Shown: positions 15,346 through 63,282 of the stretch, one piece after another
Numbering within the stretch: the stretch's first letter is position 1
Layout of the letters: every line of letters begins with the position of its first letter
From: Candidatus Scatosoma sp.
Lineage (GTDB): Bacteria; Bacillota; Clostridia; Christensenellales; Borkfalkiaceae
DNA: 64,000 nt
Reading direction: 5' to 3'
Assembly: GCA_045533485.1 (NCBI GenBank)
Contig: JAZSHX010000019.1
Coordinates: forward strand, 8,300 to 72,299
Notes under the pieces: model-generated
Told to the model about the DNA's origin: nothing
Seen by the model: only the letters and a program-made list of their open reading frames with translations
Database searches by the model: none
Made by a program: the position numbers and the translations under genes

Positions 15346-15491
15346 TTCTTTTTATCCTCCTATGGAATTTAACCCGTTATGCTAAGGGAAACGTGGAGAT
15401 TCGTATCTCTTGGCATACGTTAGCACTATTTTACCATAAACCGCGTATAAAGTAAATTGATTTTACGCCTTTTTTATGCTTTTTTTAGCAA

Positions 15492-27650: not shown

Positions 27651-27712
27651 ATCTCTTTCTCCTTCACTTTCGCGCAAAGCGTCTTTCGCGCGCTTATTTC
27701 ATAGATATTACC

Positions 27713-27741
27713 ATCATACCTTTTTTTTACACTTTTTGCAA
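27713..27741 (-). promoter_or_regulatory. sigma-A type promoter for yajC (TTGCAA-17-TATGAT)
   Basis: Minus-strand TTGCAA (27736..27741), 17-nt spacer, TATGAT (27713..27718). Confidence 0.45.
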
Positions 27742-27779
27742 GCGATTTAATCACATTTCACGTATTTTTCATTGAAATT

Positions 27780-30230: not shown

Positions 30231-31430
<1,200 letters not shown>

Positions 31431-31501
31431 TCAATTTTACTGCGCATTTATTTGACACTTGTGCGTAAAAAGCGGTATAATGTTGGTTGGAGAGTAAAAT
31501 T

Positions 31502-32475: not shown

Positions 32476-34464
32476 TTACTCTAACTCAAACGCGCCCGTG
32501 TAGAGTTGATAATACGTGCCTTTTTGTTGAATAAGCTGTTCGTGCGTGCCGCGTTCGATAATTTCGCCGTGATCCAGCACCATGATGGCATCCGAGTTAC
32601 GCACGGTCGAAAGACGGTGCGCGATAACGAATACCGTTCTGCCGTGCATAAGTTTATCCAAACCGTCCTGTACCAGCGCTTCCGTACGCGTATCGATAGA
32701 CGAAGTAGCTTCGTCCAAAATCATTACGGGGGGATCGGCAACCGCCGCGCGTGCAATAGACAAAAGCTGTCTTTGTCCTTGCGAAAGGTTTGCGCCGTTG
32801 TTGGTAAGCTGCGTTTGATACCCTTCGGGCAAACGGCAAATAAAATCGTCCGCGTTGGCAAGCTTCGCCGCCGCAATACACTCTTCGTCCGTTGCGTTCA
32901 ATTTCCCGTAGCGGATATTATCCATAACCGTGCCCGTAAACAGGTTTACATACTGCAAAACGATACCCAAGGAACGGCGCAAATCGGCTTTACGGATTTT
33001 CGTGATATTGATACCGTCGTAGCGAATTTTCCCGTCCGCAATATCGTAGAAACGGTTGATAAGGTTGGTAATCGTCGTTTTGCCTGCGCCCGTCGCGCCC
33101 ACAAACGCGATTTTTTGCCCGGGCTTTGCATACAGAGAAACGTCTTTCAGCACCTGCTTTTCGGGCGTGTACCCAAAGTCTACGTTTTCCATCACGATAT
33201 CGCCTTGCAGCTTGGTATACGTCGTCGTGCCGTCGTCTTTATGGTAATGCTTCCACGCCCAAACGCCCGTGTGCTTATCCGTTTCCGTCACATTGCCCTG
33301 TTCGTCTTCTTTGGCGTCCACAAGCACTACGTACCCGTCGTCTTGTTCGGGCTGTTCGTCCATCAGCGTGAATACACGGCTTGCGCCTGCCAAGCCCATC
33401 GCAATCATAGACACTTGTTGCGACATTTGGTTGATAGACATCGTGAAGTTTTTACTCATACTCAAAAAGGCGATCAAGATACCCACGCCAAGGGGCGCAA
33501 TGCCGTGGAAAATACTGCTAAACCCGATATTCGGTACAGCCGTTGCCAGCATAATACCGCCGACTATCGTCAAAAGCACGTAATTGAAATTGCCCACGTT
33601 GTTCAAGATAGGGCCTAAAATATTGCCGTAGGTGTTGGCCTTCACGCTGTCGCTGTTGAGCTGGTCGTTGTGTTTGTCGAAATCTATTTTGGCTTGTTCT
33701 TCGTGCGTGAATACCTTCACCACCTTTTGCCCTTTCATCATTTCTTCCACAAAACCTTCCGTTTTTGCAAGCGAACGCTGGCGCGACACCATATATTTGG
33801 CGCTGTTGCCGCCGATACGCTTAATCAAGAAGGTCATAAGGAAGGTCGCCGCCGCCACGATCAGCCCCAGCCAAATGCTGTACCAAATCATAAGCGCCAC
33901 GGAGAATACCAAGCGCAAAGAGTTTGTGATAAGCGCAGGGATAGATTGCCCGATAAGCTGACGCGTTGCGTCCGTATCGTTGGTGTAGGTACTCATAATT
34001 TCCCCGTGCGCGTGCGTATCGAAATACTTGATAGGCAGCGCTTGCATTTTTGCAAACATTTCCGCGCGCAGCTTATACAGCATACCCTGCGTAATGCCTG
34101 CCATAATGCGGTGATAGAAAAAGCTAACGATTACGACCAACCCGTACATGCTTGCCATGAGCGCAATCGCGGTGAACAGTTCTTTCTTTACCGCCGCGTA
34201 GCCGTTTGCCACGCCCTTGGGTATAATATCGTCAATCAGCGTTTGTAAAAACACCGTGCTGACCAAGGAGCTTAACGAATCGATAACGATACACGCAAGC
34301 ACCAACGTAAGCCGCCATTTGTATTGACCAAACAGCATTTTCAATAAACGCTTAAACGTACCTTTTTTGATTGCGCCTTTGGGCATTTTCGGCATGCCCC
34401 TACCGCCGCCGCGCATGGGCGGCATAGGACGCGATTGTTCGTGTTTTTGTTGCGCTTCCGCCAT
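32476..34464 (-). CDS. ABC exporter, fused permease/ATPase (type B, multidrug-like), subunit 2
   Basis: 662 aa. N-terminal 6-TM exporter domain. Walker A GATGAGKTT, signature LSQGQRQLL, Walker B ILDEATSSID. Confidence 0.92.
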   Translation of the reverse strand: MAEAQQKHEQSRPMPPMRGGGRGMPKMPKGAIKKGTFKRLLKMLFGQYKWRLTLVLACIVIDSLSSLVSTVFLQTLIDDIIPKGVANGYAAVKKELFTAIALMASMYGLVVIVSFFYHRIMAGITQGMLYKLRAEMFAKMQALPIKYFDTHAHGEIMSTYTNDTDATRQLIGQSIPALITNSLRLVFSVALMIWYSIWLGLIVAAATFLMTFLIKRIGGNSAKYMVSRQRSLAKTEGFVEEMMKGQKVVKVFTHEEQAKIDFDKHNDQLNSDSVKANTYGNILGPILNNVGNFNYVLLTIVGGIMLATAVPNIGFSSIFHGIAPLGVGILIAFLSMSKNFTMSINQMSQQVSMIAMGLAGASRVFTLMDEQPEQDDGYVVLVDAKEDEQGNVTETDKHTGVWAWKHYHKDDGTTTYTKLQGDIVMENVDFGYTPEKQVLKDVSLYAKPGQKIAFVGATGAGKTTITNLINRFYDIADGKIRYDGINITKIRKADLRRSLGIVLQYVNLFTGTVMDNIRYGKLNATDEECIAAAKLANADDFICRLPEGYQTQLTNNGANLSQGQRQLLSIARAAVADPPVMILDEATSSIDTRTEALVQDGLDKLMHGRTVFVIAHRLSTVRNSDAIMVLDHGEIIERGTHEQLIQQKGTYYQLYTGAFELE

Positions 34465-36236
34465 TATTCGTCACCCCCTTCCGTTTGTCTGCTTTTCGTT
34501 TGCGCTTCGTAAATTTCACGGTAAACGTCGCTGGTTTGCATCAACTCTTCGTGCGTGCCTTTCGCGATAATTTGACCGCCGTCCAAAACGATAATACAAT
34601 CGGCGTGTTCCACCGACGCCACGCGTTGCGCAATGATAATTTTCGTCGTATCGGGGATTTCTTTGGTGAACGCGTTTCTAATCAACGCGTCCGTTTTCAT
34701 ATCCACCGCCGACGTAGAGTCGTCCAAAATGAGCACTTTGGGCTTTCTCAATAAAGCACGCGCGATACAAAGCCGTTGCTTTTGACCGCCCGAAACGTTA
34801 GAACCGCCCTGTTCGATATAGGTATCGTACCCGTCGGGGAACGCGCGGATAAATTCGTCCGCCTGTGCAAGCTGGCACGCACGCACGATTTCTTCGTCCG
34901 TAGCGTTTTCATCGCCCCAACGCAAGTTCTCTTTGATCGTGCCTGCGAACAATACGTTCTTTTGCAGAACGACCGCCACTTCCTTTCTAAGTACGTCCAG
35001 CTTATAATCCTTTACGTTAACGCCGCCCACGTACACGTTGCCTTCCGTAGCGTCGTACAAACGGGAAATGAGCTGGATAAGCGTCGTTTTCGACGAGCCC
35101 GTACCGCCTAAAATACCGACGGTCGCGCCCGACGGAATATCTAAATTGATAGTAGACAGCGCCCATTTATTTGCCGTTTGCGAATACTTAAACCCAACGT
35201 TTTCAAAACGCACGCTGCCGTCCTGCACGTTATCAACGCCGTTTTCCTTTTCCACGATATCACTGTCTTCGTTGAGCACTTCCGCGATACGGCGCATGGA
35301 CTCAAACGACATCGTGAGCATAACGAAAATCATGGAGAACATCATGCACGCCGACAAAATTTGTATGCCGTAAGTGATTACCGCCGAAAGTTCGGTGGGC
35401 ATAAAATCGCCGCTAACCGTACCCGAACCGATGATGGTCTTTGCACCAAGATAGGAAATGAGCACCGCAGCAAAGTTGATAAAGAACACCATAATCGGGT
35501 TATTGAGCGCAAGGATTTTTTCCGCTTTCGTGAAATCGTTGCGTACCTGCCCTGCCGCTTTTTCAAATTTTTCCACTTCGTAGTCTTCACGCACAAACGC
35601 CTTGACTACGCGTACGCCGCCCACGTTTTCCTGCACGGAATTGTTCAGCGCGTCGTACTTTTTGAAAATGCGCTTGAAAAGCGGCATAACGATACGCGCG
35701 ATACCGAAAATCGCACAAGCCAAAACGGGCACGATCACCACGAAAATCCACGCAAGCTTTGCGTTGATGGTAAAGCTCATAATGATGGCGAACAAAAATT
35801 GCAAGGGCACGCGAATGGCGATACGCAAGCTCATTTGATAGGATTGCTGTACGTTGGTCACGTCCGTCGTCAAACGGGTTACCAGCGACGACGTGGAAAA
35901 TTTATCCACGTTGGCAAAAGAGAATTTTTGCACTTTATAGAACAAATCGTGGCGCAGGTTGGTGGCAAACCCACAGCTTGCCTGCGCGGCAAACTTACCT
36001 GCAAACGCCCCCGACAGCATCGACATCGCCGCTAAAACGATAAGCGCCGCGCCATAAGTTAAGATATGCGCCAACGCTCCGTCGCCCAACAGCTTACTTT
36101 CATTGATCATTTGCGCCATCAAAAAGGGAATTAAGCATTCGCAAAATGCTTCTATCGCCATAAAGCAGGGCGTTATCAAGGACGGCTTTTTATATTGCCG
36201 CACGCTTCCCAAAAGCGTTTTAATCGTTTTAATCAT
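34464..36236 (-). CDS. ABC exporter, fused permease/ATPase (type B, multidrug-like), subunit 1
   Basis: 590 aa. 6-TM domain. Walker A GGTGSSKTT, signature VSGGQKQRL, Walker B LILDDSTSAVD. 1-nt overlap with the downstream partner suggests a heterodimer. Confidence 0.92.
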   Translation of the reverse strand: MIKTIKTLLGSVRQYKKPSLITPCFMAIEAFCECLIPFLMAQMINESKLLGDGALAHILTYGAALIVLAAMSMLSGAFAGKFAAQASCGFATNLRHDLFYKVQKFSFANVDKFSTSSLVTRLTTDVTNVQQSYQMSLRIAIRVPLQFLFAIIMSFTINAKLAWIFVVIVPVLACAIFGIARIVMPLFKRIFKKYDALNNSVQENVGGVRVVKAFVREDYEVEKFEKAAGQVRNDFTKAEKILALNNPIMVFFINFAAVLISYLGAKTIIGSGTVSGDFMPTELSAVITYGIQILSACMMFSMIFVMLTMSFESMRRIAEVLNEDSDIVEKENGVDNVQDGSVRFENVGFKYSQTANKWALSTINLDIPSGATVGILGGTGSSKTTLIQLISRLYDATEGNVYVGGVNVKDYKLDVLRKEVAVVLQKNVLFAGTIKENLRWGDENATDEEIVRACQLAQADEFIRAFPDGYDTYIEQGGSNVSGGQKQRLCIARALLRKPKVLILDDSTSAVDMKTDALIRNAFTKEIPDTTKIIIAQRVASVEHADCIIVLDGGQIIAKGTHEELMQTSDVYREIYEAQTKSRQTEGGDE

Positions 36237-36711
36237 GTTTGCTTTCTCCTTTCTTGTTTTTTACGCAACATTTACACGGCTCTTCCTTGCCGTCCGTCAC
36301 GTTTTCGTATACGCGCTGTAAAAACCCGAAAAGCATCGCGCGCTCTTCTTCGCTAAACCCTTTCAAAAGCAGGTCTTCCATCTCCTTGCGGTGGGCGCGC
36401 ATCGCACGGAAATTGCTCCACTCCTTTTCCGTGAGCTTGACAACCTTTGCACGTCTGTCGGCAGTGCTTTGCTCTATTTCCACAAGCCCTTTTTCCTGCA
36501 AACGGGAAACCAGCCCGAACACCGTTGCGTGCGTGCAATCCAAAAACTTTTCGATATCGCGCATCGTCACTTCTTTGTCTTCGCATTTGTGCAAATACCA
36601 CAAAACCTTGCCCTGCGAAAAGGTAAATTCACGCTTACGCGCGCTTTCGTTGGCGCGTTTTTCCAGCTTTTCGCTTATCTTCTTTAAGTACATGCCTACG
36701 TGTTCACTCAT
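36229..36711 (-). CDS. MarR family transcriptional regulator
   Basis: 160 aa. Winged-helix region FTFSQGKVLWYL...MRDIEKFLDCTHATVFGLVSRLQEKGLV..DRR. First gene of the marR-ABC-ABC operon, with an 8-nt overlap. Confidence 0.9.
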   Translation of the reverse strand: MSEHVGMYLKKISEKLEKRANESARKREFTFSQGKVLWYLHKCEDKEVTMRDIEKFLDCTHATVFGLVSRLQEKGLVEIEQSTADRRAKVVKLTEKEWSNFRAMRAHRKEMEDLLLKGFSEEERAMLFGFLQRVYENVTDGKEEPCKCCVKNKKGESKHD

Positions 36712-36864: not shown

Positions 36865-39861
36865 TTACAATGTTACTGTTCCGTCGTTGCAAACCACCTG
36901 CGTCGCAGGTACGCCTCGATTCCATCCATAACCTTTCTCAATCGCGTCCCATTCTTCTTTCGTACCATTAAACGTCAGGCTTGTTAGGATACAATCTTCA
37001 AACGCCCACCTACCAATGGTTTCTACACTGTCAGGAATGGTTACACGCGTTAAACTGTCACACGTATTGAACGCACCATCGCCAATCGTCGTTACACTGT
37101 CGCCAATAGTCACACTTGTTAAATTGCTACAAAACGCAAATGCGTAATAGCCAATCGAAGTTACACTGTCGGGGATAACGATGGCTTTTATCTTGTTATT
37201 TTCATAAAACGCCTGTTGATAAATACTTTTCACGGGCAGCCCGTTATAGGTATCCACAATGACAACATCCGTTGCCGTACCCGTATATCCAGTTACCATC
37301 GCATACGTGCCATCATCGGAAACTTGATATTGCAAACCATCCGTGCCTTGCAACAACGTCTTGGTGAAAATAATTTGCAAATCAGCAGATACGCCTTGAT
37401 TCCAATTTTCACCTTTCACAATCGCATCCCATTCTTCTTTTGTACCATCAAACGTAATGCTTGTTAAGTTTTTGCAATCCGCGAATGCATATTCGCCAAT
37501 AGAAATTATACTATTAGGAATTTCAAAGCTTGTTATATTAGTACAACCCTTAAATGCACCACCAGCAATAACCTTTGTTTCTTCATGGATAACATACGAA
37601 TACAAATTTTTATTTTTCGCATACAATACAGCATGATGTTCATTGCCTTCGTTGCCTAAATATGCAACATTGAGATAAATAGCAGGATAAAAACTATACA
37701 AGTATTCGGTAAGTATTGCATTATATGCAATATTTATTACACTATCGGGGATAATGATATTTTCCAAGCTAGAGCCATAATAGAAGGCATTTTCGGCAAG
37801 TGTCGTCACGCCATCAGGAACAATAAAGATATCTTCATAATAACTGGAAGCTAAAATAAGCGTTTTCCCGTCTTTTGTATATACACTACCATCTATTGAC
37901 TTGTATTTCGCATTATTCTCCGATATCGTTATATACAAAGACCAACACCAACCAAATTGCTCTCTTCCAATCCATTCTACACTATCACCGATAAAAACCG
38001 TACCCAATGATTCACAATGAGAAAATGCCCCAACGCCAATTGTTTTTACGCCGTTCCCGATTATTACATCAGATAAAACCATATTCTCAATAAACGCATA
38101 AGCACCAATTGAAATTACACTGTCAGGAATCACTAATTGCCCATGGTTACAACCAGCGAACGCATAATCACCTATTATCTTGACCCCATTCGGTATGTTT
38201 ACCGTAGAAATCCACCCAGTAGAAAAAGCATGATTATTAATAACTTGAATACTATCAGGAAGCATCACGCTCAACCATTCATGACCGCGATAAAATCCCC
38301 CGCCATTCCCAATGTGTGTTACCGGCACCCCATTATAAGTGCTAGCAACTCTGATCCGTGTTGCTGAACCTGTATAGCTTGTTGCAATTGCATAAGTACC
38401 ATCCGAAGAAATACAATATTCTATCCCTTCCGACGCCTTAATCAACATTTTGCAAACTGTACACACACCTTCTGCATCCAACGAGTGTTCTCCATAACCT
38501 TTTACCTTCGAACAATCTTTACATTCATACCAGTGATAAAAATCATCCAACGTATACGTTGTAAACCATGCGTGCGTATCAACAATCGCCGTGTAATTAT
38601 TTTTTATTTGTTCGCCACATTTACCACACGTTTTCACATCATAACCTTGCGTGGTACAAGTCGGCGCAACCGTTGTCACCTCGCCCCACTTATGTCCTGC
38701 CATAACGTAATTACTCTTTTCTTCCGTTCCGCACACACCGCAGGTTTTGGTGTCATAACCGTCCGTGGTACAGGTAGCCGCAACCGTTGTTGTTGCTCCC
38801 CACGTATGTCTTGCATTTACAAAATTCGTCTTTTCTACGTAATCGCAACGCGTACAAGGCGTTTGCGTGTAGCCGTCCGTTGTGCAAGTGGGCGCAACCG
38901 TCGTCGGCGTTCCCCACTTATGCCCTGCGGAAACGTAGTTTTCTTGCACTGCCGTTCCGCACGTTGTACACGTCTTGCTGTCATATCCTTGTTCCGTGCA
39001 AGTAGGCGCAACCGTCGTCACTGCGCCCCAAGCATGGTTATTCGAAATCGCCGTGTAGTTGTTCTTCACTTCTTCTCCGCAGGTTGTACACACCTTCACG
39101 TCATAACCCTGCACCTTACAGGTAGCCGCAACCGTTGTTGTTGCTCCCCATTTGTGTCCTGCTGGTACAACGTTTTCTTTTTTTACTTCACTGCAAGCCG
39201 TACAAGGCGTTTGCGTGTAACCGTCCGTCGTACAAGTGGGCGCAACCGTCGTCGGCGTTCCCCACTTATGCCCTGCGGAAACGTAGTTTTCTTGCACTGT
39301 CGTTCCGCACGTTGTACACGTCTTGCTGTCATATCCTTGTTCCGTGCAAGTAGGCGCAACCGTCACTACCGCGCCCCAAGCATGGTCGTTGCTGGTTGCC
39401 GTGTAGTTGCTTTTCACTTCTTCTCCGCATACACGACACGCCTTTTTATCATAACCTTGGTCTTTACAGGTAGGCGCAACCGTCACTACCGCACCCCACG
39501 CATGCGTTGCGTCCACGTGATTTTCTTGCACTGTCGTTCCGCAGACGTCGCAGGTTTTTTCATCATACCCCTGCTCCGTGCAAGTAGGCGCAACTTTCGT
39601 CACTTCGCCCCACGTATGTCTTGCCGGTACGAAATTTTCCTTTGCTTCTTCGCCACAGCTTGTACAAACTCTTGCATCGTAGCCATCTTTTGTACAGGTA
39701 GGCGCTACCGTGGTAGGGTTACCGTAGGTATGTACGTGCGGCGCATTCTCAATTTCGTAATTGCTATACGAATAATACGCTGAGCACGACGCCAAACCGC
39801 TAATCGTCAACGCCGAAAACAGCGCTACCAAGCATAACTTTAACCATTTTTTGCCTTTCAT
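36865..39861 (-). CDS. large surface lipoprotein A: lipobox signal peptide, 10 tandem His/Cys modules plus cap, two BspA-type leucine-rich-repeat blocks
   Basis: ORF 36865..39897. Start at ATG 39861 (GGAG upstream). Signal MKGKKWLKLCLVALFSALTISGLASC (lipobox LASC). Ten repeats of H.WG....VAPTC...GY....C..CG. LRR_5-like repeats (IPDSV..IG..AF..C..L). C-terminus FNGTKEEWDAIEKG.GWN...VVCNDGTVTL is paralogous to 43613..46855. Confidence 0.9.
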   Translation of the reverse strand: MKGKKWLKLCLVALFSALTISGLASCSAYYSYSNYEIENAPHVHTYGNPTTVAPTCTKDGYDARVCTSCGEEAKENFVPARHTWGEVTKVAPTCTEQGYDEKTCDVCGTTVQENHVDATHAWGAVVTVAPTCKDQGYDKKACRVCGEEVKSNYTATSNDHAWGAVVTVAPTCTEQGYDSKTCTTCGTTVQENYVSAGHKWGTPTTVAPTCTTDGYTQTPCTACSEVKKENVVPAGHKWGATTTVAATCKVQGYDVKVCTTCGEEVKNNYTAISNNHAWGAVTTVAPTCTEQGYDSKTCTTCGTAVQENYVSAGHKWGTPTTVAPTCTTDGYTQTPCTRCDYVEKTNFVNARHTWGATTTVAATCTTDGYDTKTCGVCGTEEKSNYVMAGHKWGEVTTVAPTCTTQGYDVKTCGKCGEQIKNNYTAIVDTHAWFTTYTLDDFYHWYECKDCSKVKGYGEHSLDAEGVCTVCKMLIKASEGIEYCISSDGTYAIATSYTGSATRIRVASTYNGVPVTHIGNGGGFYRGHEWLSVMLPDSIQVINNHAFSTGWISTVNIPNGVKIIGDYAFAGCNHGQLVIPDSVISIGAYAFIENMVLSDVIIGNGVKTIGVGAFSHCESLGTVFIGDSVEWIGREQFGWCWSLYITISENNAKYKSIDGSVYTKDGKTLILASSYYEDIFIVPDGVTTLAENAFYYGSSLENIIIPDSVINIAYNAILTEYLYSFYPAIYLNVAYLGNEGNEHHAVLYAKNKNLYSYVIHEETKVIAGGAFKGCTNITSFEIPNSIISIGEYAFADCKNLTSITFDGTKEEWDAIVKGENWNQGVSADLQIIFTKTLLQGTDGLQYQVSDDGTYAMVTGYTGTATDVVIVDTYNGLPVKSIYQQAFYENNKIKAIVIPDSVTSIGYYAFAFCSNLTSVTIGDSVTTIGDGAFNTCDSLTRVTIPDSVETIGRWAFEDCILTSLTFNGTKEEWDAIEKGYGWNRGVPATQVVCNDGTVTL
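38446..39738 (-). repeat. tandem array of ~114-120-nt coding repeats (His/Cys modules), including a near-identical internal duplication with 348-nt period
   Basis: Eleven consecutive 38-43-aa modules in the protein. DNA around 38885..39016 and 39233..39364 is almost identical; I saw one mismatch in about 130 nt by eye. Confidence 0.85.
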
Positions 39862-40045
39862 AAACCAATCTCCAAATAAAAAAGTGCCGTTTACCAAACG
39901 ATAAACGACACTGCATAAGTGCCTTTATCGCTTAGTTGCGACACTAACTCAAAAATAACCCATAGTGAAAGGTTTTATAGAAACGCGAAAAAGGTACACT
40001 TTGCCTAAAAGTATACTTCCACTATGCGTTATTAAGTTAGGTCGC
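39862..40045 (-). promoter_or_regulatory. structured 5' leader A: nested helices P1-P3, alternative antiterminator/pseudoknot pairings and an intrinsic terminator (candidate riboswitch-like attenuator)
   Basis: Hand folding of the minus-strand transcript. P1 is 40032..40045 with 39938..39952. P2 is 40020..40026 with 39961..39967. P3 is GUAUACUU/AAGUGUAC. Terminator arms 39882..39892 and 39902..39912 are followed by a U-run. Every helix is kept by compensatory changes in the paralogous leader at 46856..47037. Confidence 0.6.
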
Positions 40046-40051
40046 ATTTTC

Positions 40052-40080
40052 ATTTTACCACTTTTTTCTTATTTTTGCAA
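40052..40080 (-). promoter_or_regulatory. sigma-A type promoter of leader A (TTGCAA-17-TAAAAT)
   Basis: -35 at 40075..40080, 17-nt spacer, -10 at 40052..40057. The predicted start coincides with the 5' base of P1. Same geometry as 47044..47072. Confidence 0.6.
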
Positions 40081-40090
40081 GCGTTTTGCA

Positions 40091-40123
40091 TATAAAAACA
40101 GTCGCGTCAATACGACGCGACTG
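40091..40123 (-). terminator. terminator of the yhaO/yhaN-like operon
   Basis: CAGTCGCGTC / GACGCGACTG 10-bp stem followed on the minus strand by TTTTTATA. Confidence 0.8.
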
Positions 40124-40136
40124 CCGCTATTTGCGT

Positions 40137-42398
40137 TTAGCGTATTCGTCTTTCTTCTTTACAGGTGCAGTAAATAATTTGATATTTTTTTGCCAGCCGT
40201 TGCGCCATCCGCTTGGCAAGCGCGGTCGTCGTGTCGTCCAAATGCACGAACGGATCGTCGAAAAGCAGTACGGGCGGTTCGCCTGCGTACACCGCTTCGA
40301 TAAGCGCCAAGCGCATACAAAAACCTATCAATTCTTGCGTGCCTTGGCTGTAATACGCAAGGTCGCGCAACACGCCGTTTTGCTCCAACAGCGGCGTGCC
40401 GTCCGCCGTAAATTTCAAAGCGGCGGTAAAATCCGTTTTCAATTCCGCAAGCAATTTCGCGCTAATGCTTTCCACGGGCTGTAAGTACCGCGCAGCCATA
40501 TTTTCACGGGCGCGCTCCAAAAGTGTTTTCGCTGTTTGCAAAGCGCTGAAACGGCGTTCCAAACGCGCTTTTTCCGCAAGCAGCTGCGCTTCTTCCGCTT
40601 TATAATCGGCAAGCGAATACGCCTTTTGTTCCAGCGCCGCCACGCTGGCTTTCACGTTCGCAATCTCCATAAACGCCGCGCGCTCGTCCGTTTCCAACGC
40701 CGCAATCCGTTTTTTTAACTCTTCCACGTCCGCCATAGCGTACATATCGGCGGACATAGAGTCCGCAGACGCACTCTCCTTGGGCAAGCTTTCGCACGCC
40801 GAAACGGCAAGCTCCCGTTCTTGATATTCTTCTTGGTACGCTTCGCACTTTTCTTTGAGCGACGAAAGCGCCGCGCGGTAATCGTACGTTTCCGCAAACG
40901 CGAAATTGCTCAAAAAGCTCTCAATCGCCCCTTTCAGTTCTTCCGCGCGCCGTTGCCGATTACTCTTTTCTTCTATCAGCTGTTGAATATGCTCGTTTTC
41001 CAAAGCACTGTTTTGCAACTCAATTTGCAACCTGTCAAACTCACGCTGTACTTCCCGATAACGGCGGTTTAATTTTTTATCCTTGAACTTTTTACGGCGA
41101 AACGGGAATTTCCAAAACTTCGTGGAAAATACCGTTTCCAAAAATATCCACGCAATAAAACCGCCGCCCAAGCCCACTAACGGCCAACCGACCACGGGCA
41201 AGCTTTCGATTTGCGTTGCGCCGATCAGCGTGGCGATGAGTGCCAAAAGCAGTTTGAGCGTACCCATCTTTTGCTTTTGCTCGCTGGCGTTTGCTTCGCG
41301 TTGCACGTCGCGGAACGCTTTGCGCGCTTGCTGGTGCTGTTCGTCCAGCATTTGCTCAAACGATTGCAATTCCTTTTGACAGGTATGGTAGGCGTCCAAC
41401 AGCCCCTTGTATTCTTCCTGCTTCCGTCCTTGTTCGTACGATTGCGACTGTTGCGTTTCAAACCACGCAAGCAAATCGTAATACTCTCTCACGGCGTTTT
41501 CTATCCCTTCCACGTTGACCGTCAAGGGATTATTTTGCCCGAAAAACGCCTGTAATTTCGCAAGCTTTTCATCCGCGCGCGCTATGCGGCGTTGTAAATC
41601 CTGCCGTTCCATACGCGCGGCAATCCGCGTACTGTTTTGCATTTGCTCATCGCGCAAAGCGGAGAACTTTTGCAAATCCGCCTGCGTTTTGGCAAGCGAC
41701 GCGTTGAGCTCCTGCAACCGTTTCTGCGCGCCGTATAAATCGATAGCCGCCTGTTGACAATCGCGTTTTTGCGCTTCCAACTGATACAGACGCGCGTCGA
41801 TTTGGTCCAAAAGTCCGTTCTTAGGCGCACGTTTTCCGCGCAGTTTGCTTTCCGCCTGTTCCAAGCGTTGCAACGCCGTTTGCGCACCGCTTTGTTTGTC
41901 GTTTTCCACCGACAAAAGCGCAATCAACCGCGCTTTCGTGTCTTCGGGCAAGCCCTGCGCCGTCATTTCCCCGTGCGCGATATACGCCGTCCTATGATAG
42001 CTTTCTTTATTGATGCCCAAAATCAATTCGCCCAAATTTTCCACGTTTTCGCCAAACGCATAGGCAGGCAAATTGTTCTTATCGTACAACTTCACGGTAT
42101 CCATCGACGGCGTTTTTCCAAATGTGCGCTCTATACGATACGTTTCGTTTCGATAGGAAAAAGTCAAGCTTCCGCCGTACGTTCCCCCTTGGAACGGTTG
42201 ATATTTTTGGCGAATATCGTCCGCGACCTGCTTTCCGCGCGACGCATCCATACCAAAGAGCATACTTTCAATAAACGTGATAAGCGTCGTTTTGCCCCAG
42301 CCGTTGTCTTGCTTGATTTCCACAACGTCCTTGGATAAATCAAACGCTTGATTGATAAACTTACCAAACGCCGTAATATGGCAGGAAATCAGCTTCAT
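40137..42398 (-). CDS. SMC/Rad50-like AAA ATPase (YhaN/SbcE-like) with a central hydrophobic hairpin
   Basis: 753 aa. N-terminal P-loop NGWGKTT, long Q/E/K/L-rich coiled coil, two hydrophobic helices at about aa 380-424, and a C-terminal Walker B-like LLFDDPFVHLDD. Confidence 0.82.
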   Translation of the reverse strand: MKLISCHITAFGKFINQAFDLSKDVVEIKQDNGWGKTTLITFIESMLFGMDASRGKQVADDIRQKYQPFQGGTYGGSLTFSYRNETYRIERTFGKTPSMDTVKLYDKNNLPAYAFGENVENLGELILGINKESYHRTAYIAHGEMTAQGLPEDTKARLIALLSVENDKQSGAQTALQRLEQAESKLRGKRAPKNGLLDQIDARLYQLEAQKRDCQQAAIDLYGAQKRLQELNASLAKTQADLQKFSALRDEQMQNSTRIAARMERQDLQRRIARADEKLAKLQAFFGQNNPLTVNVEGIENAVREYYDLLAWFETQQSQSYEQGRKQEEYKGLLDAYHTCQKELQSFEQMLDEQHQQARKAFRDVQREANASEQKQKMGTLKLLLALIATLIGATQIESLPVVGWPLVGLGGGFIAWIFLETVFSTKFWKFPFRRKKFKDKKLNRRYREVQREFDRLQIELQNSALENEHIQQLIEEKSNRQRRAEELKGAIESFLSNFAFAETYDYRAALSSLKEKCEAYQEEYQERELAVSACESLPKESASADSMSADMYAMADVEELKKRIAALETDERAAFMEIANVKASVAALEQKAYSLADYKAEEAQLLAEKARLERRFSALQTAKTLLERARENMAARYLQPVESISAKLLAELKTDFTAALKFTADGTPLLEQNGVLRDLAYYSQGTQELIGFCMRLALIEAVYAGEPPVLLFDDPFVHLDDTTTALAKRMAQRLAKKYQIIYCTCKEERRIR

Positions 42399-43480
42399 AA
42401 CGCAATCTCCTCCCCTGCAAGCGCCTGCAACCCGATTTCCAGCACTTCCGCGCGGAAATCTTCGTTCATCTCATACCTGCCCACTTCTCTTATAAATTCT
42501 CCGCGCTCCGTCACGTCGTTTGCGTACGCCTGCGCGTCGATAAGAAGCCGCGATTCGTCCAGCACCTTCGCGTCGAAAAATATCTCTTTCAGCTTTTGCG
42601 TGAGCATAGCCGTATCCTTGCGCAAGCCCTGAAGGTATCTTCCGCAAAGCACGATTTTCACCAGCATATTTTTATCGATACCGCGCACTGCGCCAAGTAC
42701 CGCTTTTTCCACGTCGAAATACGTTTTACAAGCGGAAATATCCACGCGTACGGGCAAAATTTTGCGCGTAGCAAAGGAAAGGAACTTTTCCCCCACAAGC
42801 TTGCCGTTTTCCACTTCCAAAAGGAAAAATCCGCGATCGCCTTCTTCATCGTAACCGCGCCCTTCGGGGCAACCGCAATAGCGGTATTTTCCGCGCCCGT
42901 CCAAACGCTCCGCCTGCAAGGTGGGCTTATGTATATGTCCCAGCGCCAAATAATCAATATGCTTGTTTTGCAAGTACGCAAGCGGAATTTCGTCGTCCGT
43001 TTGCGCGTATTCCTTCACGACAGCGCCGTGTAAGAGCATAATGTTAAACGCGCGCGCGTCTAATTGCAAGGGCGAAGAAAACGCAGAAGAAAAATTGCTC
43101 GCGTCCGCGCCCGTCAGCACTACGTTTTCCCCTAAAGCGTATTGACAAAATGTGTTTTGATGGGAAAACAAATGCAAATTTTGCGGTAAGTGCGCAGGCA
43201 ACGCCACCTTTTTATCGTGATTGCCCGACACGTAGAAAAATTGCACGGGGCTTGCGCTTTCGATAAGCGAAAACACTTCGCCTTTCACCTGTGCCGATAC
43301 GTCGTTTTCGTCGAATAAATCGCCGGCAATCAGCACTGCGCCAACGCCGTTGGTTTTACAATACGCGCAAAGCTTGGCAAACCCGTCTAAAATTTCCGCT
43401 TTGCGAAGCAGCGCTTTATCCCTTGGCAACCCGACGAACGCCGAACCGATATGTATATCCCCCGTATGTACGATGCGCAC
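42395..43480 (-). CDS. metallophosphoesterase DNA-repair exonuclease (SbcD/YhaO-like)
   Basis: 361 aa. Motifs GDIHIG, GDLFD, GNHD, GHIH. GTG start. 4-nt overlap with the ATPase gene. Confidence 0.86.
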   Translation of the reverse strand: MRIVHTGDIHIGSAFVGLPRDKALLRKAEILDGFAKLCAYCKTNGVGAVLIAGDLFDENDVSAQVKGEVFSLIESASPVQFFYVSGNHDKKVALPAHLPQNLHLFSHQNTFCQYALGENVVLTGADASNFSSAFSSPLQLDARAFNIMLLHGAVVKEYAQTDDEIPLAYLQNKHIDYLALGHIHKPTLQAERLDGRGKYRYCGCPEGRGYDEEGDRGFFLLEVENGKLVGEKFLSFATRKILPVRVDISACKTYFDVEKAVLGAVRGIDKNMLVKIVLCGRYLQGLRKDTAMLTQKLKEIFFDAKVLDESRLLIDAQAYANDVTERGEFIREVGRYEMNEDFRAEVLEIGLQALAGEEIAL

Positions 43481-43612: not shown

Positions 43613-46600
43613 TTATAACGCCACCGTGCCGTCGGTGCAAACGACTTGTTTGACGGAAAGTCCATACGACCAGTTAACACTCTTACCAACAGCGTTCCAT
43701 TCTTCGATAGTCCCGTTGAATTTCAAGCTGGTGACAGCGGAACAGCCTTCAAAGGCATACCCTGCAATCACTTTCGTGTTTTTATGGATGGTATACGTTG
43801 TTAACTTCGTGTCGGAAACGTCCATCAACGCCGCAAAGGCATTGTTATCGTTGCCCAAATACTTGCAATTACCGTACGCAGTATACTGCAACGAATACGT
43901 ATTACTAAATGCATAACTGCCAATCGAAACAACGCTGTCAGGGATAACCACACTGGTTAAGCCACCACAATAATTGAAAGCCATTTCGCCGATAGACGTA
44001 ACACCGTCGGGTATCACCACTTCCCTTAAAGCGTAGCAGTTAGCGAAAGCATACGCGCCGATAGAGGTGACACTGTTAGGAATAACCACGCTGGTCAATT
44101 GATTACATTGGAAAAATGCATACGGTTTAATTTCCGTCACGCCTTCGGGAATCACCAAATCCGTAACAAGCTGATTGTTGATATATAATCTCGTCACTCC
44201 ACCATCGCCAAAGAAACTTGCGTTATGCTCTTTTACCGTAATATTACACCAACCTGCAACGTCCCCTTTATAATATACGTTTTGGACATAACACCTATAA
44301 AGAGCATAATCACCAACGGAAACAAGACTTGCGGGAACGGTAAGATTCGTTATGCCTACACTGTTGCCGTTATCAGAGGAGAACGCATACATTGCGATAT
44401 TTTCCACGCCGTCGGGAATAACAAAGTCCGTTCTGTGACCGTAACCGATGGCATAGCGCACAAGCGTTTTTCCGTCCTTTGTATACAGGTTTCCGTCAAT
44501 CGATTGATATGCCGTGTTGCTTTCGGATACAGCTATATTTTTCAAGCCGTAGCATGCATAGAAAGCCAGTTCCCCAATCGTTTCTACGCCAGCGCCAATC
44601 TGTATGCTTGTTACGGCTGTACACCCGTAAAACGTCCTTGCTCCCAACGTTGTAACGCTGTCGGGAATGACAATCTCCGCCAATGCGGAACAATTATAGA
44701 ATGCATCCTCGCCAATGGAAATAACGCCTTCGGGAATACTTATATTCGTTAAATTTTTGCAACCTGAAAAAGCGCCGCCTGCTATTACCTTGGTCTTTTC
44801 ATGCAACGTGTACGAGGATAAATCCGTGCTGGTAACCCCCATCAAGAAATAGAAATCGTTGCCGTCCACACCCAAATATTTACAATTTGCATATTCGGTA
44901 TAAGAAATTCTACAGTTATAAAATACGCGACTGCCAAGAGAAACAATACTCTCAGGAAGCTCTACGTTGGATAAAGCGCAATATGCAAACGCATCATAAC
45001 CGATAGAAGTAACACTGTCGGGAATAACAACACTACTTAAAGTTTCACAACGATAGAAAGCAGAATTGCCAATGGTCGTAACACCGTAAGGAATTACCAT
45101 TTCCTTTATACCTGTACAAGAATAAAATGCACAAGCTCCAATCGTTTCAACGCCGCTGCCCAGCGTTACGTTTTTCATTAAGCGACAATCACGGAATGCC
45201 TCAACGCCAATTGTTTTCACGCTGGCGGGAAGTACCAGCTCCGTCAAATCACAAGACCAGAATGCATGATAGTCAATCGTTTTTACGCTATTGCCCCACG
45301 TTATGCTGGTTAAGCCGCTATCCGAAAACGCATAACCGCCAATCGTTTCAACGCCGTTGCCAAGCGCTACACTTTTTAAAGCGCTACAGGAAGTGAAAGC
45401 ATATTGGGCAATCGTCTTTACGCTGTCGGGAATAACAACGGCTGTAATTTTTCTGTTTGAAGAAAATGCGTTTTTGGAAATACCCGTCACCGGTACGCCG
45501 TTGTATGTATCGGCAATTTTCACTTTCGTTGCCGTACCTTCATAACCCGTCACTTCCGCATACGTACCGTCCGCGGAAAGCGTATATACAACACCTACCG
45601 TTTCCGTAATAGGTTGACCGCAAAGCGTACAAATATCGTTTTCGCCGTATACGTGCTCTTCCTTTTCTTGGGTTGCGTCACACTTTTGGCATGCATACCA
45701 GTGATACGTGCCGTCCGCCGTATACGTATTTGCCCAAGTATGCTGCGCGTCTACGAAGTTATTTGTCGTTTCCGCTTCGCAAACGGTACATTTAACCACG
45801 TCGTAGCCCCGTTCGGTGCAAGTGGGCGCTACCGTGGAAACGGTTTCCCATGCGTGGTTGTCCGTTACTTCCGTATAATTGCTCTTTTGCGTCGCTTCGC
45901 AATTTATGCACGTTTGCAAATCATAGCCCTGCTCTGCGCAAGTAGGCTCTACCGTCACCGCTTCGCCCCACGTATGTCCGCCGTGTTTCCACTCAATATC
46001 GCTACACGTTGCGCAAATTCTGGACAACAGCGTTTGTTCGCAAAATACGTTTTCCGTAGCGCCAAAAGCTACCCATTCGCCCCAACTATGTACATGCTCT
46101 TCTTCCTTGGGCATTTCCACCGTTTGCCAAGTTCCGTTGGAATAATAGATTATTAAGTTTCCATCTTTATCTATTTCAACTTTGGTTATGCTGACGCCCT
46201 GCTCGCCTTGGTCGCCCTTGTCACCCTTTTCGCCTTGGATGCCTTGCTCACCTTGGTCGCCCTTATCACCCTTGTCGCCTTTCTCGCCTTGGATGCCCTG
46301 TTCGCCTTGGATGCCTTGTTCGCCCTGGTCGCCCTTGTCACCCTTTTCGCCTTGGATGCCTTGTTCGCCTTGGTCGCCCTTATCACCCTTTTCGCCTTGG
46401 ATGCCCTGCTCGCCTTGGTCGCCCTGGTCGCCTTTTTCACCCTTTTCGCCCTGGATGCCTTGCTCACCTTGGTCGCCTTTATCACCCTTTTCACCTTGGA
46501 TGCCTTGTTCGCCTTTCAGCCATGCTAAAAAATCCGCTTGCGTGCCGCTATGCCCGTTCGCAAGCCAAATTTCATAGGCAGATTGTCCATCCGCCCCGTT

Positions 46601-46855
46601 TATGCCGTCTTTACCATCCGCGCCGTCTTCCCCTTGAATGGTCGCGAGCCAAATTTCATACGAAAGCGGTGTTTCCCCCTGCGCTTCCACGTATACGACG
46701 TACTGTTGGTACACGGCTTTGATTTGTTCGTCCATTTGAACGCCATTTACGCTTGAAGAAGATTTATCCCCCACATCACAGCCGCCAAGGGCCAAGCCCG
46801 CGCCAAACATACTCATAAGTGAGAGCGCAAGCGTCAAGATTTTTTTGCCTTTCAT
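43613..46855 (-). CDS. large surface lipoprotein B: lipobox signal peptide, collagen-like G-X-Y region, His/Cys modules plus cap, BspA-type LRR blocks
   Basis: 1080 aa. Signal MKGKKILTLALSLMSMFGAGLALGGC. Two YEIWLA motifs. About 35 G-X-Y triplets (GEKGDKGDQGEQGIQ units). Modules H.WGEAVTVEPTC..GY....C..C. LRR_5-like repeats. C-terminus FNGTIEEWNAVGKSVNW...VVCTDGTVAL. Confidence 0.9.
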   Translation of the reverse strand: MKGKKILTLALSLMSMFGAGLALGGCDVGDKSSSSVNGVQMDEQIKAVYQQYVVYVEAQGETPLSYEIWLATIQGEDGADGKDGINGADGQSAYEIWLANGHSGTQADFLAWLKGEQGIQGEKGDKGDQGEQGIQGEKGEKGDQGDQGEQGIQGEKGDKGDQGEQGIQGEKGDKGDQGEQGIQGEQGIQGEKGDKGDKGDQGEQGIQGEKGDKGDQGEQGVSITKVEIDKDGNLIIYYSNGTWQTVEMPKEEEHVHSWGEWVAFGATENVFCEQTLLSRICATCSDIEWKHGGHTWGEAVTVEPTCAEQGYDLQTCINCEATQKSNYTEVTDNHAWETVSTVAPTCTERGYDVVKCTVCEAETTNNFVDAQHTWANTYTADGTYHWYACQKCDATQEKEEHVYGENDICTLCGQPITETVGVVYTLSADGTYAEVTGYEGTATKVKIADTYNGVPVTGISKNAFSSNRKITAVVIPDSVKTIAQYAFTSCSALKSVALGNGVETIGGYAFSDSGLTSITWGNSVKTIDYHAFWSCDLTELVLPASVKTIGVEAFRDCRLMKNVTLGSGVETIGACAFYSCTGIKEMVIPYGVTTIGNSAFYRCETLSSVVIPDSVTSIGYDAFAYCALSNVELPESIVSLGSRVFYNCRISYTEYANCKYLGVDGNDFYFLMGVTSTDLSSYTLHEKTKVIAGGAFSGCKNLTNISIPEGVISIGEDAFYNCSALAEIVIPDSVTTLGARTFYGCTAVTSIQIGAGVETIGELAFYACYGLKNIAVSESNTAYQSIDGNLYTKDGKTLVRYAIGYGHRTDFVIPDGVENIAMYAFSSDNGNSVGITNLTVPASLVSVGDYALYRCYVQNVYYKGDVAGWCNITVKEHNASFFGDGGVTRLYINNQLVTDLVIPEGVTEIKPYAFFQCNQLTSVVIPNSVTSIGAYAFANCYALREVVIPDGVTSIGEMAFNYCGGLTSVVIPDSVVSIGSYAFSNTYSLQYTAYGNCKYLGNDNNAFAALMDVSDTKLTTYTIHKNTKVIAGYAFEGCSAVTSLKFNGTIEEWNAVGKSVNWSYGLSVKQVVCTDGTVAL
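46196..46513 (-). repeat. imperfect 45-nt tandem coding repeat (collagen-like GEKGDKGDQGEQGIQ units with 9-nt indels)
   Basis: Protein aa 115-220 is uninterrupted G-X-Y. The DNA shows the repeated block ccttggtcgcccttgtcacccttttcgccttggatgccttg. Confidence 0.9.
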
Positions 46856-47037
46856 TGTTTTCCTCCAAAAAATAAAAAGTGTCGCCTTAACGAATAAGAC
46901 GACACTGACAAAAGTGGCTTATCCGCTAAAGTTGCGACACTCAATTAAAATCTAATCGTACAAAAGATTTATGTAACGCAAATAAGGTACACTTATGCCC
47001 TATAAGTATACTTTTGTACGTATTTAATTGAGTTCGC
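46856..47037 (-). promoter_or_regulatory. structured 5' leader B, a diverged paralogue of leader A with the same fold and terminator
   Basis: P1 is 47023..47037 with 46934..46949. P2 is 47011..47020 with 46957..46966. P3 is GUAUACUU/AAGUGUAC. Terminator arms 46878..46889 and 46895..46906 are followed by a U-run, then GGAGG SD and ATG. Confidence 0.6.
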
Positions 47038-47043
47038 AGTTTC

Positions 47044-47072
47044 ATTTTAGCACTTTTCTTTGCATTTGGCAA
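47044..47072 (-). promoter_or_regulatory. sigma-A type promoter of leader B (TTGCCA-17-TAAAAT)
   Basis: -35 at 47067..47072, 17-nt spacer, -10 at 47044..47049. Confidence 0.6.
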
Positions 47073-61345: not shown

Positions 61346-61404
61346 TTTTTTTCTTCCTTTTTATTGACTTTTTTATATTTCGTTGCATACCTGGTATGCG
61401 CATT

Positions 61405-62064
61405 TTACTTTTTTCTTGCTTCTTCTGCTTGCTCTGCCAAGCGTTTTGCCAGCTCTTCTTTCTCCGCCGCTTGCTCCGCGTTAATCTCCGCGTTAAGCGC
61501 AGCAACCGCTATGATACCGTCGCGCGGCGTGGGTTCTTGGTCGGGGATACGGATACGCACGATTCTGCCCGGTACGCCGACTACGGTTGCATACGGCGGC
61601 ACTTCTCTAAGCACCACTGCGCCTGCGCCGATTTTTGCGCCCTTGCCAACGGTGAAGCCGCCAAGCACTTTCGCGCCTGCCGACAGCGTTACGTTTTCCA
61701 TAATCGTAGGGTGGCGTTTGCCCTGTTCCTTACCCGTACCGCCCAGCGTTACGCCTTGGTAAATGACCGTCCCTTTATGCACTTCCGCCGTTTCGCCGAT
61801 AACGACGCCTGCGCCGTGGTCGATAAATACGCCCCCTTCTATTTTTGCCGCAGGATGAATTTCAATACCCGTTAAAAAACGGGCGAATTGACTGATCATA
61901 CGCGCCAACAGTTTGAGCTTGATTTTGTGAAAAAAATGCGCGACGCGGTGCCACGATAAGGCGTGTACGCCCGAATAGGTGAGCAGGACTTCCAGCCCGT
62001 AGCGCGCCGCAGGGTCGTTGCGTTTCGCCGCTTTGATATCTTCGCGTAAATTCTTAAACCACAT
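61405..62064 (-). CDS. cysE: serine O-acetyltransferase
   Basis: 219 aa. N-terminal SATase helices and hexapeptide repeats (GVFIDHGAGVVIGETA, GVTLGGTG). Upstream of cysS as in Bacillus. Confidence 0.92.
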   Translation of the reverse strand: MWFKNLREDIKAAKRNDPAARYGLEVLLTYSGVHALSWHRVAHFFHKIKLKLLARMISQFARFLTGIEIHPAAKIEGGVFIDHGAGVVIGETAEVHKGTVIYQGVTLGGTGKEQGKRHPTIMENVTLSAGAKVLGGFTVGKGAKIGAGAVVLREVPPYATVVGVPGRIVRIRIPDQEPTPRDGIIAVAALNAEINAEQAAEKEELAKRLAEQAEEARKK

Positions 62065-63038: not shown

Positions 63039-63282
63039 AACGTTTCCTTCTTTTTTAAGCGTATTGCCATTATACCATTTTTATAAAAAAAAGGCAAGCG
63101 TTGACGTGTCGTTTTTTGTGTGCATATTTTCGCGAAATGTGAAAATTTTGTGTTAATTTTGTTCATTTTTTCGGGATTTTGTAAAAAATATCAAAAAAAA
63201 TAACATTTTTGCTTTCATTTGCTTGCTTTTTTGTTTTTTTTGTGGTAAATTGATTGCAACTAACAAAAGGAGTGACGCGCAT

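Follow-up and report, generated by a model that had tools for sequence, protein, structure and literature searches.

A candidate undescribed riboswitch-like leader upstream of BspA-type lipoprotein genes in Candidatus Scatosoma and other Clostridia

What kind of element is the intergenic leader that precedes a gene for a BspA/leucine-rich repeat (LRR) lipoprotein in Candidatus Scatosoma sp., and what might it control? The leader in question (copy A; 40046..39874, minus strand, approximately 165 nucleotides (nt)) lies in a stretch of 64,000 nt, positions 8,300 to 72,299 of contig JAZSHX010000019.1 (GCA_045533485.1), which we refer to as the window, and its downstream gene is referred to as gene A. 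We find that copy A represents a real, conserved and co-varying family of cis-regulatory RNAs with a platform that combines a terminator, an antiterminator and a pseudoknot, and that, as far as Rfam 15 and the searched literature show, this family is undescribed. The first-pass annotation of this DNA had called the leader a candidate undescribed riboswitch-like element, and our results support this as the right level of claim; we keep the word candidate because the pseudoknot is less strongly supported than the nested helices, and ligand binding and the ON/OFF sign are putative.

All features of the leader are on the minus strand. A promoter scan located the promoter that the first-pass annotation had placed ahead of it, at 40052..40080, with the -35 box TTGCAA (40080..40075), a 17-nt spacer and the -10 box TAAAAT (40057..40052), and showed in addition that the -10 box is TG-extended; the promoters of this and the second copy (see below) are both of the TG-extended sigma-70 type. 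The sequence UGCGAC (40046..40041), with which helix P1 opens, starts 5 nt after the -10 box, and transcription is predicted to start at or beside the first bases of P1. The three nested helices proposed earlier for the minus-strand transcript were recovered by RNAfold, as one P1/P2/P3 hairpin, in both copies. In copy A, the 5' strand of P1 (40032..40046) consists of the near-invariant UGCGAC (P1a) and CUAACUUAA (P1b), and its 3' strand (39937..39952) of UUGAGUUAG, a bulged U and GUCGCA, whereas P2 pairs CAUAGUGGAA (40017..40026) with UUUCACUAUG (39961..39970); the 3' strand of P1 and both strands of P2 are defined by RNAfold together with co-variation. The P3 hairpin (39994..40016) comprises GUAUACUUU, the loop UAGGC and AAAGUGUAC, and includes an invariant U.G wobble. 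Between P3 and the 3' strand of P2 lies a bulge of 23 nt, J3/2 (39971..39993), within which the 5' strand of the pseudoknot, CUUUUUCGC (39993..39985), is followed by the conserved segment GUUUCUAUAAAACC. The linker downstream of P1 contains the switching strand GCGAUAAAGGCACU (39918..39931), the partner of which is either J3/2, in the pseudoknot, or the terminator 5' arm, in the antiterminator. The intrinsic terminator (39874..39912) is a hairpin of 13 pairs (39912..39883) followed by the run UUUUUAUUU. The earlier placement of this terminator some distance before the Shine-Dalgarno (SD) sequence holds for the hairpin, which ends about 10 nt before GGAG (39873..39870), but not for the U-tract, which runs directly into the SD; the ATG start codon follows at 39861..39859.

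The fold of copy A (-65.6 kcal/mol, z = -7.5; RNAfold) is matched by none of 200 shuffled sequences, and the minimum-free-energy structure is the proposed antiterminator form, with 13-14 bp between the linker and the terminator 5' arm. The sbcC gene upstream of copy A has its own terminator at 40125..40097, so that each leader with its gene forms its own transcription unit. A leader peptide was considered and rejected, given that the ATGs in the -10/P1 region of copy A are not conserved in other members of the family.

The window also contains a diverged second copy (copy B; leader 47038..46868 within the region 47072..46853) with the same parts. The promoter scan found TTGCCA, a 17-nt spacer and a TG-extended TAAAAT at 47044..47072, and the sensor domain (46933..47038) scores 156.5 bits with the covariance model (CM) of the family. 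P1 is formed by 47038..47023 with 46949..46933, P2 by 47019..47012 with 46965..46958, and P3 by 47011..46987. The pseudoknot strand of J3/2, CUUAUUUGC (46986..46978), pairs over 9 bp with the switching strand GCGGAUAAGCCACU (46913..46926), which in the antiterminator pairs with CUUAUUCG plus AGUG. The intrinsic terminator (46868..46906), a 12-pair hairpin (46906..46878) plus a U-run, is followed by the SD GGAGG (46866..46862) and the start codon (46855..46853). Again, none of 200 shuffles folds as well as the native sequence (-54.2 kcal/mol, z = -5.4; RNAfold), the minimum-free-energy fold being, in this copy, the terminator form. Each of the two copies has the arrangement of an intrinsic-terminator attenuator, that is, its own promoter and then a G+C-rich hairpin with a U-run before the SD.

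The two copies are 80% identical, and the first-pass observation that the second one keeps all the pairings was borne out, with compensatory changes in P1, P2 and the pseudoknot. P1 shows two fully compensatory changes and the pseudoknot one swap of U-A to A-U, and the P2 sequences are wholly different but still paired (CAUAGUGGAA/UUUCACUAUG in copy A vs GUACAAAA/UUUUGUAC in copy B). We counted exactly two occurrences of the conserved P3 core pattern in the window, where 0.00 would be expected by chance.

Does the leader belong to a described family? The 4227 covariance models of Rfam 15 include those for all named riboswitch classes, T-box, r-protein leaders, PyrR, ykkC, ydaO, c-di-GMP-I/II and preQ1, and at the gathering threshold we obtained no hits with any of them, either in the window or in 18 homologous loci (131.7 kb), in agreement with the earlier statement that the fold was not recognised as that of any named family. 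At E<=10, the two copies yielded only unrelated, chance-level matches below threshold, none of them common to both, namely, rli42 (on the opposite strand), small nucleolar RNA and microRNA models, and L10_leader on the terminator of the neighbouring gene. A literature search found no description of the leader family. Neither PMC8632094 nor PMC11109978 mentions an LRR-, BspA- or lipoprotein-associated motif, and the leader sequence strings are absent from the searched part of the supplements of Fremin & Bhatt 2021 (PMC8040213), the largest catalogue of structured RNAs from the human microbiome, which is weak evidence.

Homologous leaders were collected by two scans, one of a single genome per species with a pattern derived from P3 alone (22 loci) and the other of metagenomes with a pattern derived from the 3' strand of P1 and the terminator alone (22 true loci and one chance hit, L023, a match within GC-rich coding DNA that was discarded). 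Together, these scans gave about 39 distinct leader sequences. The loci from the genome scan all come from metagenome-assembled genomes (MAGs), labelled Christensenellaceae, Candidatus Scatosoma, 'Clostridia/Clostridiales bacterium' and, once, Oscillospiraceae, that were obtained from goat, sheep, deer and human-type gut samples. A phage origin was rejected, with 0 hits in the viral_contigs scan. The whole element, that is, promoter, UGCGAC, P1, P2, J3/2, GUGUCGCA(A/G)C, linker, terminator and SD, is present in all 22 loci found with the P3 pattern; the spacing between the -10 box and UGCGAC is exactly 5 nt in all members with upstream sequence, and a terminator was found in all complete members. 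Among the metagenomic loci, the changes in P3 of L024 and L026 are compensated, and L039 and L040 have unrelated P3 sequences with the architecture retained. Searches of the window and of the flanks of the 45 loci for further copies (blastn, nhmmer --max and the covariance model R1) found none, so that there is one per locus, the weak reverse-strand hits of model R1 being the mirror image of the hairpin.

The conservation of the helices in other genomes, on which the earlier proposal depended, is backed by strong co-variation in P1, P2 and the terminator. In a structure-blind MAFFT alignment of 29 sequences, 94.0% of the cells pair, compared to 84.3% in shuffled alignments, none of 500 of which reached the observed value, and to 36-54% in slid controls; double-sided changes are seen in 16 pairs. 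MAFFT did not find a consistent register for P1b, where the bulged U alternates with a 1x1 loop, and CM alignment and an alignment-free test were used instead. In the CM alignment of 38 sequences, 94.9% of the cells pair, 26 of the 41 pairs show double changes, and the co-variation score is 0.455 vs 0.164 in shuffles (0/500) and at most 0.10 in slid controls. The co-varying pairs include 9 in P1, all 8 modelled pairs of P2, 6 of 9 in the terminator and 3 of 9 in P3, the stem of which is nearly invariant in the main clade, with co-variation in its distal pairs. Because a CM alignment leans to its own structure, we added the alignment-free test, in which the duplex energy of the 5' and 3' strands of the same member is compared to that obtained with strands from other members (2000 permutations). 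For P1b, the cognate duplexes average -8.0 vs -3.0 kcal/mol for non-cognate ones, and for P2, -8.9 vs -2.4 kcal/mol, with 0/2000 permutations as extreme in both cases. The conserved U.G/G.U pairs (37/37 sequences at one P3 position and 27/38 in the terminator of the CM alignment) fit only the minus-strand transcript, which is accordingly the transcribed one.

The consensus of the family reads, in the 5' part, uGCGA - P1b - P2 - GUAUaCUu..G..aAGUGUAC - CunuUUcGCnnUayannAAAuCUU - P2' - P1b' and, in the 3' part, GUGUCGCArC - nnnGCGr..CAyUuUry - GUGUCG...CGrCACUUUU. The segment GUGUCGCArC at the 3' end of P1 is at least 90% conserved, and the conserved unpaired positions are those of J3/2 (CunuUUcGCnnUayannAAAuCUU) and one G in the loop of P3. 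In short, the leader has a structured sensor domain, in which the helices co-vary and certain unpaired nucleotides are conserved, as they are in riboswitches.

The linker (consensus GCGAnnAAGGCAC) was originally described as able to pair with either the terminator 5' arm or the bulge enclosed by P2, but not with both at once, and both pairings hold across the family, the pseudoknot less strongly. In the cognate-strand test, the antiterminator (linker with terminator 5' arm) gives -12.7 vs -10.3 kcal/mol and the pseudoknot, in which the linker meets the 5' portion of J3/2, -9.6 vs -8.4 kcal/mol, with 0/2000 permutations for each; no signal was obtained in the same test for J3/2 paired with the terminator arm, which served as the control. 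Some members change three strands together: in L002 and L015, J3/2 has UUUUGC, the linker GCAAAC and the terminator arm GUUUGC, and in L005 and L007, a linker GGCGC accompanies changes in both terminator arms (ACGUCG/CGACGU). L039 forms a 9-bp antiterminator of quite different sequence (AUUAAGAAA/UUUCUUAAU), and L040 a perfect pseudoknot of 10 bp (UACGUUUUGC/GCGAAACGUA) that departs from the consensus by 4-5 compensations. We conclude that the antiterminator is well supported and the pseudoknot moderately supported, and that the antiterminator is mutually exclusive with the terminator and maintained by selection, as in transcription attenuators. A local linker hairpin, AGCGAA/UUUGCU, that exists in many members is absent in those with UUUAC and is treated as optional.

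Certain words recur along the leader. The terminator 5' arm starts with the heptamer (A)GUGUCG of the P1 3' strand (39912..39906 and 39944..39938 in copy A; 46906..46900 and 46940..46934 in copy B), the GCGA of the linker repeats the 5'-terminal GCGA, and the GGCAC of the linker repeats the CGGCAC of the terminator 3' arm. In the genome set, which was ascertained by P3, GUGUCGC is found in P1 of 21 of the 22 loci and GUGUCG in the terminator of 18. Because these words are shared among alternative partners, the P1 3' strand and the terminator are frozen in sequence, and the repeats suggest that more alternative pairings may exist than a three-state model uses.

The mean energies are about -9.6 kcal/mol for the pseudoknot, -13.5 kcal/mol for the antiterminator hairpin and -16.0 kcal/mol for the terminator hairpin, values that would fit a kinetic, co-transcriptional decision. 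The terminator is, on these figures, thermodynamically the most stable state of the platform, and the predicted transcript begins exactly at the base of a very stable helix, as in 5' stabilisers; both features would also be expected if nothing were sensed at all, the 5' hairpin protecting the mRNA end and a leaky constitutive terminator setting a low basal level of surface proteins that are costly to make, or the leaders acting in trans as small RNAs (sRNAs). We regard this explanation as improbable. Stabilisation of the 5' end would by itself require no conserved 24-nt bulge and no linker co-varying with either of two partners, and the fact that co-ordinated changes in L005/L007, L002/L015 and L039 have kept up an antiterminator of 11-14 bp implies selection for the alternative state.

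What, then, are the genes that these leaders control? A lipoprotein signal peptide and a lipobox are predicted in 26 of the 39 downstream genes, the call for L017 being a false positive, and an N-terminal membrane anchor in two more. Pfam identified LRR_5 (BspA type) in at least 14 of the downstream proteins, and the other domains include Flg_new, Flg_new_2, Big_2, DUF5050+MBG, DUF6273, cohesin and collagen repeats. A minority of the genes encode proteins of other kinds, namely, a zinc-ribbon-TIR_2-TPR protein (L005, L007), an SPFH/Band_7_1 protein (L021), a GH31 glycosidase (L036, L037), a double zinc-ribbon protein (L027), a lipobox-bearing AAA ATPase (L040) and small proteins without a family (L026, L028, L042, L041, L010). 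A search of the non-lipoprotein cargo for a clue to the ligand with PADLOC and NCBIfam gave just an IetA/CDC48-like AAA ATPase in L040, which is uninformative. The regulon is thus largely one of the cell surface and envelope.

Taken as a whole, the chain of pairings is best read, in our opinion and with about even confidence, as a cis-acting transcription attenuator in which a pseudoknotted sensor sequesters the antiterminator strand. Transcription would start at the first bases of P1, and the long irregular hairpin P1a-P1b-P2-P3 would zip up co-transcriptionally, leaving the conserved bulge J3/2 of approximately 24 nt. The linker, emerging next, could at once pair with the waiting J3/2 to form the pseudoknot. 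If a putative effector stabilised the pseudoknot, the linker would be locked and the terminator 5' arm would have no partner until the 3' arm was made; the terminator would then form, and RNA polymerase would stop about 10-30 nt before the SD, leaving the gene OFF. If the pseudoknot were not stabilised, the longer and more stable antiterminator would displace it once the terminator 5' arm was made, and the lipoprotein gene would be ON. The effector, which we infer to exist, is most likely a small molecule or an ion. It is possible, if doubtful, that the leaders make up a new riboswitch class whose fold, a rod-like P1-P2-P3 with a pseudoknot from bulge to tail, is also new. Through it, a small molecule, possibly a second messenger or a metabolite of the cell envelope, would switch off a whole repertoire of adhesin-like surface lipoproteins of the BspA type in Christensenellaceae-like gut bacteria.

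Several observations weigh against this reading. The pseudoknot is only moderately supported because its signal on fixed columns is modest, its strands are homopolymer-like, and L004 and L010 carry mismatches: 85-86% of the cells pair, compared to about 83-83.7% in shuffles (2/500), its 4 double-change pairs are equalled in 103 of 500 shuffles, the strands pair easily because both are U-rich or A-rich, there are three central mismatches in L004 and L010, and the pseudoknot of L039 is weak. About a third of the cargo does not consist of surface proteins, and because the cargo is not a metabolic pathway, the gene context names no ligand. Every host is an uncultured MAG, so far as the present set goes, and the effector and the sign of the response are putative. 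The terminator 5' arm repeats the P1 3' strand (GUGUCG), which permits a model of opposite sign, and in shape the sensor is a rod-like hairpin, not a compact junction of several helices. Finally, much of the conservation resides in stems (P1a, P3 and the terminator stem) and not in junctions, a bias that one would sooner expect in a family that is narrow and has radiated recently, or in an RNA recognised by a protein, than in a classic riboswitch aptamer.

The last of these points bears on the nature of the effector. The same RNA switch could respond to a dedicated RNA-binding protein or another macromolecule that would recognise the P3 stem-loop and/or P1a, work in the manner of PyrR, TRAP, LicT/SacY or ANTAR proteins and co-ordinate a surface-protein regulon. 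Such an effector would suit helices that are invariant in sequence (P3 GUAUAC/GUGUAC with its fixed U.G; P1a UGCGAC/GUCGCA) while P1b and P2 co-vary freely, a rod-like sensor, and a multi-copy family with a functionally coherent, non-metabolic regulon and a narrow taxonomic range. We nevertheless consider it unlikely, if far from negligible. There is no conserved or recurrent regulator gene adjoining the leaders in the 45 loci, the neighbours of which differ, and the MarR gene next to gene A (see below) does not recur; no binding motif of known antiterminator proteins was recognised by inspection, and there were no Rfam leader hits; and L039 and L040 keep the platform with a quite different P3 sequence.

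The repeated words open the way to a trp-attenuator-like chain of 1:2/2:3/3:4 pairings with the opposite sign, in which segment 1 is the P1 3' strand (GUGUCGC), 2 the linker (GCGA..CAC), 3 the terminator 5' arm and 4 the 3' arm. With P1 closed, for example, by a bound effector, the linker would be free to form the antiterminator (ON), and with P1 open, it would be captured by the P1 3' strand, and the terminator would form (OFF). RNAalifold did propose a hairpin in which UCGC of the P1 3' strand pairs with GCGA of the linker, and the repeats of (A/G)GUGUCG in P1 and the terminator 5' arm, and of GGCAC in the linker and the terminator 3' arm (CGGCAC), are those that the chain calls for. In L002 and L015, however, the linker GCAA breaks this hairpin and is compensated instead in J3/2 and the terminator arm; the long hairpin should close P1 before the linker is made; the conserved, complementary strand of J3/2 would be left without a role; and the relevant bases hardly vary, so that there is no co-variation evidence. 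We think that this chain has little chance of being the true one, and we retain the attenuator in which the pseudoknot sequesters the antiterminator strand as the preferred reading.

Some members of the family depart from the common layout. In L025:7540-7693 (+) and L030:646-798 (-), the distal half of P3, that is, the loop and the 3' arm (GUAUACUUACCUUUUUCGC), is lost, and the promoter, P1, P2, J3/2, linker and terminator are retained ahead of an intact gene for a Flg_new lipoprotein; this is either a variant in which part of P3 was naturally deleted or an artefact of assembly that recurs in two samples. In L017:2651-2815 (+), a complete leader with its terminator is followed by approximately 248 nt that contain no SD-preceded open reading frame (ORF), and beyond this gap lies a gene for an HTH_3 / TcdA-TcdB-like glycosyltransferase-domain protein, so that L017 could be a leader without a gene, a copy of the sRNA type or a leader whose small gene was missed. 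L005:849-3521 (+) and L007:2499-5165 (+), from MAGs of different hosts and species bins, share a near-identical leader and zinc-ribbon-TIR_2-TPR gene, and the 161-nt leader and promoter of L013 are identical to those of L020, the two coding regions diverging past the signal peptide. These two cases are hints of horizontal transfer, or of cassette-like exchange of modules made up of promoter, leader and signal peptide. Low-stringency blastn with the promoter part of the leader matched intergenic DNA of the window at 27707..27748, 31402..31437, 15457..15491, 61399..61449 and 63213..63242, which suggests that the A-rich spacer and the AGTGnTAnAAT extended -10 box may be the general form of strong promoters in this organism and not specific to the leader.

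The two genes downstream of the leaders in the window both encode lipoproteins with LRR_5 domains. Gene A (36865..39861, minus strand) encodes a protein of 998 amino acids (aa) with the lipobox LASC, Cys-rich repeats and BspA-type LRR_5 domains. Within it, at 38769..39601 (-), repeats of 114 and 348 nt encode about ten Cys-rich modules of approximately 38 aa (H.WG...TVAPTCT.QGYD.K.C..CG), for which there is no good Pfam model, the matches to YhfH and DUF7565 being weak; similar 'HTH...C..C' modules open many leader-associated lipoproteins in other genomes. Gene B (43613..46855, minus strand) encodes a protein of 1080 aa with the lipobox LGGC, collagen-like repeats and LRR_5 domains. The repeats (46195..46515 (-)) form an array of approximately 36 units with a 9-nt period (Gly-X-Y), that is, collagen-like triple-helix repeats (PF01391), and the higher-order periods of 45, 54 and 99 nt suggest that this array may have expanded or contracted recently. 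Between the two lipoprotein genes lies the sbcD-sbcC operon (40137..43480 (-)), which encodes a Metallophos protein and then an AAA_23/SMC_N protein, and 3' of gene A are genes for a MarR regulator and two ABC exporter genes (36711..32476). No link of the sbcD-sbcC, MarR or ABC exporter genes to the leader is apparent.

As commensals, Christensenellaceae-like Clostridia are prevalent in the gut, and to our knowledge almost nothing in their gene regulation has been established experimentally. BspA-type LRR lipoproteins are likely to form the interface with the host, mucus, other microbes and phages, and if the proposed mechanism is true, a multi-copy RNA switch places the surface repertoire under co-ordinate control, at the level of transcription elongation, by one signal. 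Once identified, this signal would bring with it either a further riboswitch class or a new RNA-binding regulator and would provide a handle on the timing of adhesin display. The hosts are uncultured, yet the leader is directly testable in vitro because it is compact, has its own promoter and terminator, and offers clear alternative pairings. With its unusual regulon and understudied lineage, it would rank as a high-quality orphan candidate.

Among known systems, several come close in one respect or another. The preQ1-I riboswitch of Bacillus subtilis queC is a transcriptional OFF switch in which a pseudoknot sequesters the antiterminator strand. The leader resembles preQ1-I in that the 3' tail of its sensor is proposed to enter an H-type pseudoknot with a single-stranded segment further inside, and in that this tail would otherwise help to build an antiterminator, in competition with an intrinsic terminator immediately ahead of the SD. 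There is, however, no similarity in sequence or at the level of covariance models; the sensor of the leader is a rod-like P1-P2-P3 of approximately 110 nt with a 24-nt bulge, compared to the 34 nt of preQ1-I; and the regulon consists of surface lipoproteins, whereas that of preQ1-I OFF riboswitches is a biosynthetic pathway.

In Clostridia, c-di-GMP-I/II riboswitches control adhesins, pili and flagella in Clostridioides difficile, and like the leaders described here, they are cis-acting, have terminator platforms and precede surface or adhesion genes in many copies per genome. Because of this likeness, a second messenger is a reasonable guess for the effector, although the folds and conserved nucleotides are unrelated and there is no Rfam match to c-di-GMP-I/II even at E<=10.

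Like the 1:2/2:3/3:4 attenuators and T-box leaders, the family strings together mutually exclusive helices, the last of them an intrinsic terminator, and repeats sequence words among alternative partners. Unlike such attenuators, the leader has no leader peptide ORF, its upstream element being a conserved structured domain with a probable pseudoknot, and with respect to T-box, there was no Rfam hit at any threshold used, and the consensus has neither a Specifier loop nor a T-box sequence. Protein-dependent antitermination leaders (RAT/LicT, ANTAR, PyrR and TRAP) gave no hits where Rfam models exist, the ANTAR and TRAP motifs having been sought by inspection only. The closest general resemblance is to orphan riboswitch candidates (Weinberg and Breaker-lab collections; PMC8040213), which likewise consist of a conserved, co-varying 5' leader with an expression platform; the present family is absent from Rfam 15. 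It forms a new class, but the kind of system to which it belongs is known and its type of mechanism is familiar.

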